Shown: positions 17,998-21,289 of the stretch, one piece after another | Position numbering within the stretch: position 1 is the stretch's first letter | Layout: the number at the start of each line of letters is the position of its first letter | Origin: Candidatus Latescibacterota bacterium | GTDB lineage: Bacteria; Latescibacterota; UBA2968 | Assembly (NCBI GenBank): GCA_965207885.1 | Contig: OZ242311.1 | Coordinates: 3,232,001-3,296,000, forward strand | Reading direction: 5' to 3' | DNA: 64,000 nt | The notes under the pieces: model-generated | Database searches by the model: none | What the model saw: the letters and a program-made list of their open reading frames with translations, nothing else | What the model was told of the DNA's origin: nothing | Position numbers and translations under genes: made by a program

Positions 17998-18528
17998 GTG
18001 AGACATCGCAACAGGCGACCTTTGGCAGCACTTTTAGACACGGGCGAAGGGTTTATTGATGTCTTGTTTTTGCTGCTTACATTTTTTATCATTCAGAACG
18101 TGTGGCAAACCCATCTCGCCAATTTACACAACCGCTTTGTCCACGCACAAAAACTCAATTTTATCAAAGCACCCGACGAAAAAGGCTCTGCCCCCCATCC
18201 CACGGATGAACGATTTTTACAGATCATCATCGGTAAATCCTATGTGCAATTTGACAAAGGCGGCGTTGCCACCGAAGAACACATGGTCTTTCAAGACCGC
18301 GCAGACAACGACCAGATTGGTGTTGAACGCGCTGTATTTTTGTCCGTAAAAAAAGCTTTACTCGCACTACAGGCACAACATGGATTTGCGCCCAATGACA
18401 TTTTGGTGCGCCTCTATTTTGAACGCGATGCAACCGTGACTTATACCGTTGGCGTGTACGACGCCCTCAACAACAGTGGATTTAAGACTGTGCAATGGGG
18501 GCTTGAAAGTCAAAAAAGAAAGTTGTAA
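17998..18528 (+). CDS. ExbD/TolR family protein (divergent)
   Basis: FIDVLFLLLTFFII TM segment with the conserved Asp; C-terminal 'VRLYFERDATVTYTVGVYDALNNSGFKTV' fits the ExbD alpha/beta domain; GTG start 1 nt after the exbB-like stop. Confidence 0.82.
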   Translation: MRHRNRRPLAALLDTGEGFIDVLFLLLTFFIIQNVWQTHLANLHNRFVHAQKLNFIKAPDEKGSAPHPTDERFLQIIIGKSYVQFDKGGVATEEHMVFQDRADNDQIGVERAVFLSVKKALLALQAQHGFAPNDILVRLYFERDATVTYTVGVYDALNNSGFKTVQWGLESQKRKL

Positions 18529-18536
18529 AATAGAAT

Positions 18537-19895
18537 ATGTCTCCCCGTGAAAAAAAAATGATCCAGAGCGCTGCTGAAAGCATGCGACGAGATCATCCCA
18601 AATTCTTTGGCGTGTTATCTGCCATACTGCGCGCTCGCAACTTGGCTGAGGCGCGTCGGGCATGTAATTATCCCTCGTCCGAAGACTTTACAAGCGTCTA
18701 TCACCGGGCCATCGAATATCTCTTCAAACAGTTGCGTGACCTGGGGTATGTCCCCCCATCGGAAACCGATAGCTTTGAGGAAAGCATAGGGCAGAGTGCG
18801 CCATCGGGCCATTTCAAATTGCCCTCACGCGAAATCATCAATCGCTTCTACAAAGGCCATATCTTCCACGAAGCATGCGCGCTTGTGGCCATACAGAATC
18901 ACCTGGGGCTTTCCAAACTCTGGGCGCACTTCCCCAAGCGCCGGCATGAAATAGAAATCGCCATCGCCCTTGTTCCGGTCCAGGCGATAGTCCCTCAACT
19001 ACAGTCCATTCGCTTGTCCCATACCCCTATTCAACGCACACAACAACGCTTTTTGTCCGCATTGGCCGGTGCGTTTGCACTGGGCATCGTCTTGCTATTA
19101 GCACTCAGTCCTCCTCAGGGAGGGAGGGCATTCAAAGCCATTGTCACAAATTTTGAAGATATGCTCGTAAGTGCGCAGGGCATCTTTGACATGAGCAAAA
19201 ACGCACGAGAAGACGTCAACGTAACAAAACCAGATCCAGAACCCCGGGTGCAGGCTGCCCCAAAGCCAGCGCCTCGTCCTAAAATCGCGCTGCCGGACAA
19301 ACCGAAATTGGCACTCGCATCTTTGCCCGATATTCCGCGCCAACTCGACAGACCATCGCTCGGTGGATTAAAAGCCCCGCCCCGTGTCTCGACACCCAAC
19401 ATGGACAGAGGTGCAAACCCATCGTCGTTTTTTGGTTCGCGGCCAGAAGTCCATGTCGCTCGCGCCACTATGAGTATGCCCGCCCCTGCCACATTGCCAT
19501 CAACTGGCGCGAGCGCAGGCAAAGATCAGCCCGAGCAACAAGCAGAATCCACCGATCTCAAAGGCTACCGGCCTGCTGGACGCATTGGTTTTTCCAACTT
19601 TCATACATCGGGTGGTCTCTCGGCAGAACTCGTGCGGCTGACCCGTATCCAGCGCGCACTTTCTCGACTGAAAATGCCTCAAAACAGAATATATGAAAAT
19701 GCCCAACTCACATTGGCGCCAGACAAAGCCAGAATACAATTTGCCGACGGTGTTGCATTTATCCTCACATTTCGGCTGGGCCAACTCGACGACATTCAGA
19801 TTTTTGCACGCTCGGGCATAGACAAAGCCCTTCACATAGAAACCGAAGCGCGCCGGGGCATCCGCTTTCTCAACCGCGCCCTGAGCAATTCGTGA
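18537..19895 (+). CDS. Bitopic membrane protein: cytoplasmic N-domain, one TM, Pro-rich linker, C-terminal domain (TonB/TolA-like topology)
   Basis: TM FLSALAGAFALGIVLLLAL near aa 172-190; Pro/Lys-rich KPDPEPRVQAAPKPAPRPK; follows the exbBD-like genes. Confidence 0.65.
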   Translation: MSPREKKMIQSAAESMRRDHPKFFGVLSAILRARNLAEARRACNYPSSEDFTSVYHRAIEYLFKQLRDLGYVPPSETDSFEESIGQSAPSGHFKLPSREIINRFYKGHIFHEACALVAIQNHLGLSKLWAHFPKRRHEIEIAIALVPVQAIVPQLQSIRLSHTPIQRTQQRFLSALAGAFALGIVLLLALSPPQGGRAFKAIVTNFEDMLVSAQGIFDMSKNAREDVNVTKPDPEPRVQAAPKPAPRPKIALPDKPKLALASLPDIPRQLDRPSLGGLKAPPRVSTPNMDRGANPSSFFGSRPEVHVARATMSMPAPATLPSTGASAGKDQPEQQAESTDLKGYRPAGRIGFSNFHTSGGLSAELVRLTRIQRALSRLKMPQNRIYENAQLTLAPDKARIQFADGVAFILTFRLGQLDDIQIFARSGIDKALHIETEARRGIRFLNRALSNS

Positions 19896-19903
19896 GGTCG
19901 CTT

Positions 19904-21289
19904 ATGATTATGAAAAAAATCTTCCTTATCTTCTTCGTTTTTTTGATTTTGCCAGCCCTTTCTTTTGCGCAGGGAAAGGACGACAGCCTCGCCTATCAGT
20001 CTTTTGAGCAGGGCCGCAGTGCTTACGCGCTTGGGCGATATATTGAAGCCGTCGCACATTTTGAGCGTGCGTGCAACCAGGCTCTCATCTTTACCAGTGC
20101 CTATTATATCTGGCTGGGCACGGCAGGCGAGCGTGCCTACGACACGGGTCAGGACGCGCCCAACCGATTGGACCTGCTCAGAAAAAGTGCCGACGCCTAC
20201 CGCACGGCGCTCGACCGCGAGCAAGACCCCGATATTCGCTACGAATTGGGACGTCTCACCGTCAAATACGCGATGGCGCGTGCCAACTTCGTGCTTGAGC
20301 GCGAAAGCAACCGCCAACCTCTGCCGCTGGATTTGCCCCCGCCAGTATTGCGAGACAGCACCTGGATACCCACGCGCTTTCAACCCGCAACAATTGACTC
20401 CCTGCACCGAATATGGCATCTCGCAGAGGGTGGTCTGCGCGACATTTGGATGGCGATTCTCGGCAGAACGCAAAAGGAAATTGTCTATGCTGCGCCGCAA
20501 CGCAGCACCATGAGTGACACCCTTCAGGCTTATTTAAGCGTCTATATCGAAAACAGCCTGAACCTGATCGAGACCGCCGGACAGGCCAATTTTGAAGGCA
20601 TAGAACCCGATTTTTACATCCCCAAAATTGCCGCCGCATCTTCTCGCGGCGTTTTGGGCGATAACCCCGACTGGTTCAATCAAGTGCTCGCTGCCGCGCG
20701 CTTTGATGGCGGTTATAACATGCGCTGTGCCATCTACCGCCTCAAGGGATTGCGCCACAGCAAAGAAGAAGAAGCCAACCGCGCAATCCACGCCATGCAA
20801 CGCGCTCTGGTCTATGCGAGATCCGATACCTCTCGCGCCGCCCTCTATCTCGACATGGCCTTCACCGCGTACCGAGACGACTTGCCCAGAGCCGTTGAAT
20901 ATGCCAAATACGCATACGCGCACAACCAATACGAACCGAGAGTGTGCGATACCTATGGCGGGCTTTCGCTCAGTTTGGCGAGTGTAAAACTCAAAGAAGG
21001 CGCGTACCGCGAGGCGATTTCAACCATTTATCCCGTGACATCCTTTGGATGGCAAGACCGCGGCGAAGCCCTGATCACCCTGGCGATTGCCTATTTCAAC
21101 TCCGACCTGCAAAATGTGGGAGCGAGAGCATACCAGGCCGCGGAAATGGCCTATCGCATTGCGCCAGAACGCTACTGGAAAGAATTTCATCGCATCGCCA
21201 AAAGTCAGGGCAACTATGTGCAAGCGCGTCAACTCGAAGAAAAGCACAGCAGCACGTTGCTCAGCAAAAAACAGGACACCTCCCCATGA
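19904..21289 (+). CDS. Secreted TPR-like helical repeat protein
   Basis: Signal peptide MKKIFLIFFVFLILPALSFAQ; TPR-like segments (FEQGRSAYALGRYIEAVAHFERA, GAYREAISTI, ALITLAIAYF). Confidence 0.75.
   Translation: MIMKKIFLIFFVFLILPALSFAQGKDDSLAYQSFEQGRSAYALGRYIEAVAHFERACNQALIFTSAYYIWLGTAGERAYDTGQDAPNRLDLLRKSADAYRTALDREQDPDIRYELGRLTVKYAMARANFVLERESNRQPLPLDLPPPVLRDSTWIPTRFQPATIDSLHRIWHLAEGGLRDIWMAILGRTQKEIVYAAPQRSTMSDTLQAYLSVYIENSLNLIETAGQANFEGIEPDFYIPKIAAASSRGVLGDNPDWFNQVLAAARFDGGYNMRCAIYRLKGLRHSKEEEANRAIHAMQRALVYARSDTSRAALYLDMAFTAYRDDLPRAVEYAKYAYAHNQYEPRVCDTYGGLSLSLASVKLKEGAYREAISTIYPVTSFGWQDRGEALITLAIAYFNSDLQNVGARAYQAAEMAYRIAPERYWKEFHRIAKSQGNYVQARQLEEKHSSTLLSKKQDTSP

Follow-up and report, generated by a model that had tools for sequence, protein, structure and literature searches.

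A bitopic protein with a predicted sigma region 4-like cytoplasmic domain, encoded beside divergent ExbB/ExbD-like stator genes in Latescibacterota

Within a 64,000-nucleotide stretch of the genome of a Candidatus Latescibacterota bacterium (GenBank assembly GCA_965207885.1, contig OZ242311.1, positions 3,232,001 to 3,296,000 of the forward strand; this whole stretch is hereafter the window), we examined the gene at positions 18537 to 19895, which encodes a membrane protein of an unnamed family, here called the target. The target is the third of five tightly packed same-strand genes, preceded by genes for an ExbB-like and an ExbD-like protein and followed by genes for a TPR-like and a PEGA-domain protein. 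Its cytoplasmic N-terminus is predicted to adopt a fold like that of sigma factor region 4 (sigma4), ahead of a single transmembrane (TM) helix, a proline-rich linker and a periplasmic C-terminal domain. We favour, at about an even balance of probability, the reading that a divergent proton-driven motor of the ExbB/ExbD type has the target as its output subunit, in the manner of TolA, TonB and GltG, and that the target carries a sigma4-shaped protein-binding adaptor rather than a DNA-binding domain. The 52 full-length relatives and a gene order kept at 17/17 loci show that the target is a genuine gene, not a chance open reading frame (ORF).

Orthologues of the target were present at every one of these 17 retrieved genome loci, all titled Latescibacterota or Latescibacteria, and the order ExbB-ExbD-target-TPR-PEGA was kept throughout. 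Two distant lineages, G037 and L047 (whose contig begins inside the ExbD-like gene), have the same five-gene order, and on the metagenome contig that encodes the distant relative P0053 the tail of an ExbD-like gene precedes the target, TPR and PEGA genes. An earlier sequence-only reading of this DNA, made by a model without database searches, had described the target as TonB-like, and its placement behind ExbB- and ExbD-like genes agrees with that description; the target ATG lies 8 nt past the stop of the ExbD-like gene. The conserved adjacency to the ExbB- and ExbD-like genes supports the motor reading, as does the finding that the TM helix and C-terminal domain are the best-conserved segments of the protein (Table 1). 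The stator encoded by the module is active-looking as far as its residues can tell: the ExbD-like TM contains Asp21, in GFIDVLFLLL, and the ExbB-like protein retains the GLLGTVIGMIDAF core. An Asp in the TM is the proton-binding residue of ExbD and TolR. The MotA_ExbB core of the ExbB-like protein spans residues 336–418, with hydrophobic segments at 37, 229, 339 and 387. Unusually, this three-TM core comes after an additional TM at the N-terminus and ~170 aa inserted in the periplasm, an insert for which no family match was found. Elsewhere, the source genome holds two canonical ExbB genes (112–113 bits), a further, weaker MotA_ExbB match (30 bits) and nine matches to TonB_C (PF03544) in seven reading frames, at E-values from 1e-5 to 1e-21, none of them at the target gene. 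Since separate canonical TonB/ExbB/ExbD sets exist in the genome, the five-gene module is an additional, divergent and specialised one.

A Kyte-Doolittle scan of the target found a single hydrophobic segment, running from F172 to P192, and therefore ~170 residues lie upstream of the TM, which confirms the feature by which the sequence-only reading had set this protein apart from TonB and TolA. Conservation this strong in the TM helix hints that, as in TonB-ExbB and TolA-TolQ, it has a specific partner within the membrane. The helix that follows on the periplasmic side conserves A201, I202, N205, F206, E207, S212, A213, Q214, F217 and D218. The proline-rich linker noticed earlier is evident in residues 233–340, with 19% Pro and pLDDT (predicted local distance difference test) values <50, and it contains the invariant short motifs IALPxxP, PPRVSxP and FFGSRPEV; therefore the linker probably does more than space. 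On the cytoplasmic side, the second helical subdomain conserves Y105, H108, H111, E112, W129 and the motif E138-I-E140-I-A142.

Neither Pfam nor NCBIfam matched any part of the target at E≤1, and a sequence search of the PDB with the target-family profile returned 0 matches at E≤10. An AlphaFold2 model of the full-length protein, built from a 16-sequence alignment, was confident over residues 1–80 (pLDDT 83–93), 111–145 (85–90) and 343–450 (80–91), and of low confidence in the TM region and linker. Folded alone, the C-terminal domain reached a pLDDT of 87 and a predicted TM-score (pTM) of 0.80, and its predicted fold comprises one strand, short helices, five more strands and a long C-terminal helix, giving a six-stranded sheet with helices. 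Its best score in the ESM Atlas was 0.81, to unnamed clusters, and Foldseek against the PDB found nothing for it at E≤1e-3. TonB and TolA entries were absent from the VIA top-50 and Foldseek lists for this domain, and from the VIA top-50 list of the full-length model, an absence that leaves the fold possible.

For the N-terminus of the target the sequence-only reading had proposed a degenerate sigma4 or helix-turn-helix (HTH), based on the segment RARNLAEARRACNYPSSEDFTSVYHRAIEYLFKQL, which we located at target residues 32–66. Structure prediction upheld the fold, and no homology to sigma4 was detectable in sequence. A four-helix HTH was predicted within the first of the confident regions given above. 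We took the best 50 rows of one structural aligner, queried with one predicted model, and found that 34/50 align to residues 1–73 and that all 34 are HTH proteins (25 sigma or RNA polymerase (RNAP)-initiation, 6 LuxR/FixJ-type and 3 others); 11/50 cover only long TM-region helices, and 5/50 the C-terminal domain. The best matches are sigma region 4 domains, and the first six of the rows had root-mean-square deviations (rmsd) of 1.3–3.0 Å over 58–69 residues, to be read with the aligner's own warning about middling Z for helical models. The N-terminal fold as modelled is thus sigma4-like, and its homology to sigma4 is unproven. No sigma, HTH or TonB_C family of Pfam matched any of 19 family members at E≤10, the 22 matches of a genome scan with PF08281 did not include the target gene, and residues 1–75 gave no usable match among named clusters of the ESM Atlas. 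The hhalign probability of the target family against 16 sigma4 domains was 1.0–1.5%, and when residues 1–75 were forced onto a sigma4 profile it was 1.5% (local) or 0.3% (global). The forced alignment, which is not significant, is co-linear over 71 columns with one extra residue in a turn, and in it the invariant F51, Y55, A58 and L62 fall where the sigma4 recognition helix has its buried V, L, A and L.

The near absence of signal in sequence would be expected if the sigma4 likeness were a generic small helical arrangement of no functional significance and the N-terminus a lineage-specific domain with no tie to transcription, which might for instance plug or dock with the cytoplasmic cage of the ExbB-like protein. 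The hhalign probabilities against the genome's own sigma4 domains, the lack of a Pfam match in 19/19 members and the failure of Foldseek to return a sigma4 all point this way, as does the modelling of the GltG FHA domain on the cytoplasmic face of its motor (PMC11761067). However, every one of the 34 rows on residues 1–73 is an HTH and most of them are sigma or RNAP-initiation proteins, with close superposition in the first six, and the co-linear alignment sets four invariant residues on sigma4 core positions. We therefore regard a merely generic likeness as quite unlikely.

A second possibility is that the HTH binds a promoter and the periplasmic part senses, as in membrane-tethered regulators of the ToxR/CadC type. 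The confidently predicted cytoplasmic HTH, the order HTH, TM, periplasmic domain, and the conserved basic residues R34 and R41 in helices 2 and 3 would fit such a protein, but the charge pattern does not. The equivalent of the recognition helix (residues 47–68) has a net charge of -8 to +3 across the 19 members and is negative in 13/19, whereas genuine extracytoplasmic function (ECF) sigma4 recognition helices of the same genome (n=16) carry +1 to +8. The first HTH helix shows an inverted charge too, at +1 to +2 in 16 close members and -1 in three distant ones against -5 to 0 in genuine sigma4, and the whole N-terminal domain is at -6 to -7 in distant members. In addition, sigma4 alone is not known to bind DNA specifically when the rest of the holoenzyme is missing. 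The neutral-to-acidic recognition-helix equivalent argues against classical DNA binding, so that -35-type recognition by this domain appears unlikely from its residues, and we think a ToxR-type regulator very improbable. The sigma2 domain (PF04542) had no match in the target or the 19 members, and since the sigma4-like fold begins at residue 1 there is no space upstream for one. A protein-binding adaptor is most likely, and not a promoter binder, because both sigma2 and a basic recognition helix are absent.

Table 1. Coordinates of the target, its segments, the other module genes and the sigma gene of lineage G037. Positions are those of the window except in the last row. Identities are to the window protein and cover the nine members most distant in alignment A1.
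Feature	Position	Strand	Details	Segment identity
ExbB-like stator subunit, 439 aa	16677..17996	+	PF01618 E=4.2e-11, 43 bits	
ExbD-like subunit, 176 aa, one TM (~residue 18)	17998..18528	+	PF02472 E=4.9e-4, 20.6 bits	
Target gene, 452-aa bitopic protein, unnamed family	18537..19895	+	ATG start	
Predicted sigma region 4-like four-helix HTH, residues 1-73	18537..18755	+	H3-19, H21-32, H36-42, H48-68	53%
Second cytoplasmic helical subdomain, residues 98-145	18828..18971	+		66%
Pre-TM spacer				24% (worst)
Single TM helix, residues 172-192	19050..19112	+	without His or S-x3-H pattern	74%
Conserved membrane-proximal periplasmic helix, residues 196-222	19122..19202	+		67%
Pro-rich linker, residues 233-340	19233..19556	+	predicted disordered	52%
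Periplasmic C-terminal alpha/beta domain, residues 341-452, 112 aa	19557..19892	+		75%
Secreted TPR-like protein	19904..21289	+	weak TPR matches; ORF open from GTG 19892, likely ATG 19904 or 19910	
PEGA-domain protein, 567 aa	21283..22986	+	PF08308 E=6.7e-8; signal-like N-terminus, C-terminal TM	
P0061, orphan divergent ECF-type sigma gene, 221 aa	L060:8478-9143	-	genome G037	

We found one lineage in which the module includes a sigma gene. In G037, which belongs to another family of the same class, the genes run ExbB-like, ExbD-like, P0061, the target homologue P0054, TPR and PEGA, and P0061 ends 30 nt upstream of P0054. The sigma70-ECF model TIGR02937 finds P0061 at E=1.5e-10, covering model positions 7–165 of 165, with 41.0 bits against a cut-off of 42.9. 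A sigma gene directly followed by one for a bitopic protein is the usual arrangement of sigma/anti-sigma pairs. Because this ECF-like gene stands directly upstream of a target homologue, a role in sigma regulation has to be weighed, in which the target combines TonB-like and anti-sigma-like tasks in one chain: the sigma4-shaped domain, perhaps with the helices of residues 98–145, would mimic sigma in the way of PhyR and bind the RNAP flap, an ECF sigma or an anti-sigma, and would free or capture that partner once an envelope event is sensed by the motor or in the periplasmic domain. The sigma4-like fold itself favours such a role, and the succession of cytoplasmic domain, TM, proline-rich linker and sensor-like C-terminal domain resembles membrane anti-sigma factors. 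In PhyR, according to one report (PMC5830050), a sigma-like domain can act by protein binding alone. On the other side, the sigma gene occurs in a single lineage and is absent from the window module, from the 17 close loci and from L047. P0061 falls short of its family cut-off, has a single relative in 5.8 billion proteins and has no homologue that we could find in the source genome. Nor did P0061 show anything when compared with the target family by hhalign, and we dropped an 11-residue motif, RxHE[IL]EI, common to its C-terminal half and the N-domains, because 13/300 shuffles reach it. In the target, Pfam and NCBIfam revealed no recognisable anti-sigma domain, the fold of residues 98–145 not having been searched separately.

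The source genome also holds, on the minus strand of another locus (L063, G000:C1:950500-956500), genes for a canonical TonB (282 aa), ExbB (216 aa) and ExbD (137 aa), which continue directly into genes for an ECF sigma (202 aa), a zf-HC2 anti-sigma (157 aa) and an LTXXQ/Spy-like protein (128 aa). A TonB system is thus co-located with a sigma/anti-sigma pair in this genome, which counts in favour of the regulator. Taking both sides together, we hold the trans-envelope sigma regulator to be a tentative alternative with an appreciable, minority chance of being right. Joining it to the motor reading gives a hybrid, a TonB-like force transducer and sigma4 mimic on a proton motor that captures or releases an ECF sigma, an anti-sigma or the RNAP flap upon mechanical or periplasmic events and would thereby tie transcription straight to the mechanics of the envelope; this hybrid we consider rather unlikely. 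The cytoplasmic part (residues 1–73 with the helices 98–145) could be the fossil of a fused sigma4/anti-sigma pair.

The sequence-only reading had suggested looking for homologues fused to a full ECF sigma, and none of the family members found carries one. Nor do the homologues begin just before the TM, since the N-terminal domain is present in all relatives. The spacer between the ExbD-like and target genes is enlarged at two loci, to ~550 nt in L016 (7452-8000) and ~175 nt in L015 (7826-8000), and these spacers hold repeated short elements whose translated strings recur, for example ELAIASC and NWLSPVV; we found no sigma-gene remnants in them.

In the motor reading that we favour, we infer that the TM helix, with its N-terminus inside, would dock on the stator formed by the ExbB-like and ExbD-like proteins, in the way that the helices of TonB, TolA and GltG dock on theirs. 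In its architecture the target recalls TolA and TonB, and GltG and GltJ most of all. The membrane-proximal helix, the ~110-residue proline-rich linker and the C-terminal domain would extend into the periplasm, where their partners may be the TPR protein, the PEGA protein or both, or else something in the outer membrane. The cytoplasmic sigma4-shaped domain would be the adaptor, with the cytoplasmic face of the stator and a transcription-related protein as candidate partners. What the data show is the order of the genes, the domain layout, the predicted folds and the charges; the docking, the periplasmic partners and the adaptor task are deduced.

Several observations weigh against this reading. 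TonB and TolA carry a Ser/His motif in their TM; the target TM lacks this pattern, and His is absent from residues 165–200. The C-terminal domain, which had not been recognised earlier as TonB_C, gave no match to the TonB_C hidden Markov model (HMM; PF03544) in the target at E≤1, and the 19 members gave none at E≤10. The PF02472 score of the ExbD-like protein (20.6 bits) lies under the family cut-off of 25.4 bits. The sigma4 likeness comes from one structural aligner on one predicted model; Foldseek with the full target model found nothing in the PDB at E≤1e-3, and the profile of 19 members was not significantly similar, by hhalign, to 16 of the genome's ECF sigma4 domains.

The target family appears very narrow in sequence searches. 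A word-indexed search returned the 52 relatives, all of 434–463 aa with 55–99% identity and 96–100% coverage, and an exhaustive HMM search of 1.84 billion representatives gave just 9 matches at E≤1e-3: the target's own representative, three distant relatives with the full architecture (P0053, 495 aa; P0054, 529 aa; P0059, 542 aa), four fragments and one spurious match to a 1279-aa repeat protein. Across the phylum, the gene was found in 22/168 genomes, the source genome counted, including 19/20 other genomes of the same genus, 0/10 from other genera of the family and 2/3 from one other family. Within the module the target is the fastest-evolving protein, with 58–92% identity across loci, against 86–99% for the ExbD-like, 84–96% for the ExbB-like, 73–99% for the TPR and 68–96% for the PEGA protein. 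In one same-genus genome the target is split by a frameshift (L017:8001-9357, equal to G090:C2:3095915-3097271), and its second part has two in-frame stops. This disrupted copy, one of those at the 17 loci, may be a pseudogene or else reflect an error of long-read assembly.

Contigs from RNA libraries labelled 'sponge metagenome' map to the target at ≥95% identity. One covers 18549–19072 with 5 differences, another (18464–18792) bridges the junction of the ExbD-like and target genes, and further contigs bridge the junction of the target and TPR genes. These contigs lend weak support to expression of the target, as they are strandless, do not show a single transcript and may include DNA carry-over; in some runs they leave stretches uncovered. 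We saw no convincing + strand terminator inside the five-gene block, and promoter and terminator counts were at or below shuffled expectation. The two downstream genes are maintained with the rest: the TPR-like protein, which has a hydrophobic signal-like N-terminal segment, is conserved also in L047 and G037, and the PEGA gene is conserved at all module loci. Alignments of TPR orthologues start ~17 codons inside the GTG-started ORF, so that this mechanical start is probably too far upstream, and ATG 19910 is favoured because contigs from three RNA-library runs lack 6 nt at 19902. The PEGA start is most likely ATG 21283, which overlaps the TPR stop, rather than the mechanical GTG 20944. PADLOC gave no defence-system match for 4 of the 5 module proteins; its match of the TPR protein to Cas8b (E=0.0056) was weak and we dismissed it. 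The genes flanking the module, for a GFO/IDH/MocA oxidoreductase, a cupin, a DUF5916/CBM9 protein, a penicillin amidase and ClpB, are apparently unrelated. GC skew is negative in every 2-kb bin of the window (-0.08 to -0.27), and cumulative skew falls monotonically, the + strand being C-rich irrespective of gene orientation.

A growing range of outputs, from gliding and phage defence to the import of nutrients and the integrity of the envelope, is being found attached to 5:2 motors of the ExbB/ExbD, TolQ/TolR and MotA/MotB types. Bitopic proteins that couple to a motor and bear an adaptor domain in the cytoplasm have precedents, and the target is a further variant. The module would add another motor output subunit, from an uncultured phylum, whose cytoplasmic and periplasmic domains are both new in that position. 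If the sigma4-shaped domain does contact the transcription machinery, it would provide a direct physical link from a proton-driven envelope motor to sigma control, roles that classical cell-surface signalling divides between TonB and FecR-type proteins. If it is an adaptor only, it would be a case of the sigma4 fold reused outside sigma factors. A family without a Pfam entry and with two confidently modelled domains is worth a structure. In the portions of the literature available to us, we found no description of the target family or its architecture, including under Latescibacterota TonB, ExbB/ExbD with PEGA, and fused ECF sigmas. In its main text, the paper that reclassified the ECF sigmas (PMC7826278) contains no ExbB or ExbD and one mention of TonB.

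Compared with known systems, the target resembles TonB and TolA in being encoded third after the stator genes and in its single conserved TM, proline-rich periplasmic spacer and C-terminal globular domain. It differs from them in its ~170 cytoplasmic residues in two folded subdomains, in a TM without His, and in a C-terminal six-stranded sheet with helices that has no TonB_C HMM match and was recognised neither as TonB_C nor as TolA-III. TonB proteins generally lack a cytoplasmic domain, according to a paper on the TonB-like SjdR (PMC8262864). Unlike region 4 of ECF sigma factors (Sigma70_r4_2), the N-terminal domain is membrane-anchored, with no sigma2, no HMM or profile similarity and an inverted HTH charge. 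The role we propose for it, a degenerate sigma-like domain used for protein binding, is that of PhyR, although PhyR is soluble and has sigma2- and sigma4-like parts together with a receiver domain. With FecR/RsgI-type anti-sigma factors the target shares a cytoplasmic regulatory domain, a TM and an extracytoplasmic linker or sensor, whereas theirs are not sigma4-shaped and the window copy has no accompanying sigma gene. In the Agl-Glt gliding system of Myxococcus, as described in two reports (PMC11135422, PMC11761067), GltJ is organised as ZnR-GYF-TM-linker-TonB_C and GltG as FHA-FHA-TM-linker-TonB_C-like, and both work with a TolQ/TolR-type proton motor and TPR-containing periplasmic partners. 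The target differs from these two in having a sigma4-like N-terminus in place of FHA or ZnR/GYF domains, in a C-terminus where no TonB_C likeness was detected, and in an ExbB/ExbD-like motor encoded directly upstream, with no gliding genes identified. The likeness is therefore one of architectural class and not of homology family, as no Pfam matches are shared, and it lies in the succession of a folded cytoplasmic domain, one TM and a long disordered segment that leads to a periplasmic C-terminal domain, with a motor alongside.

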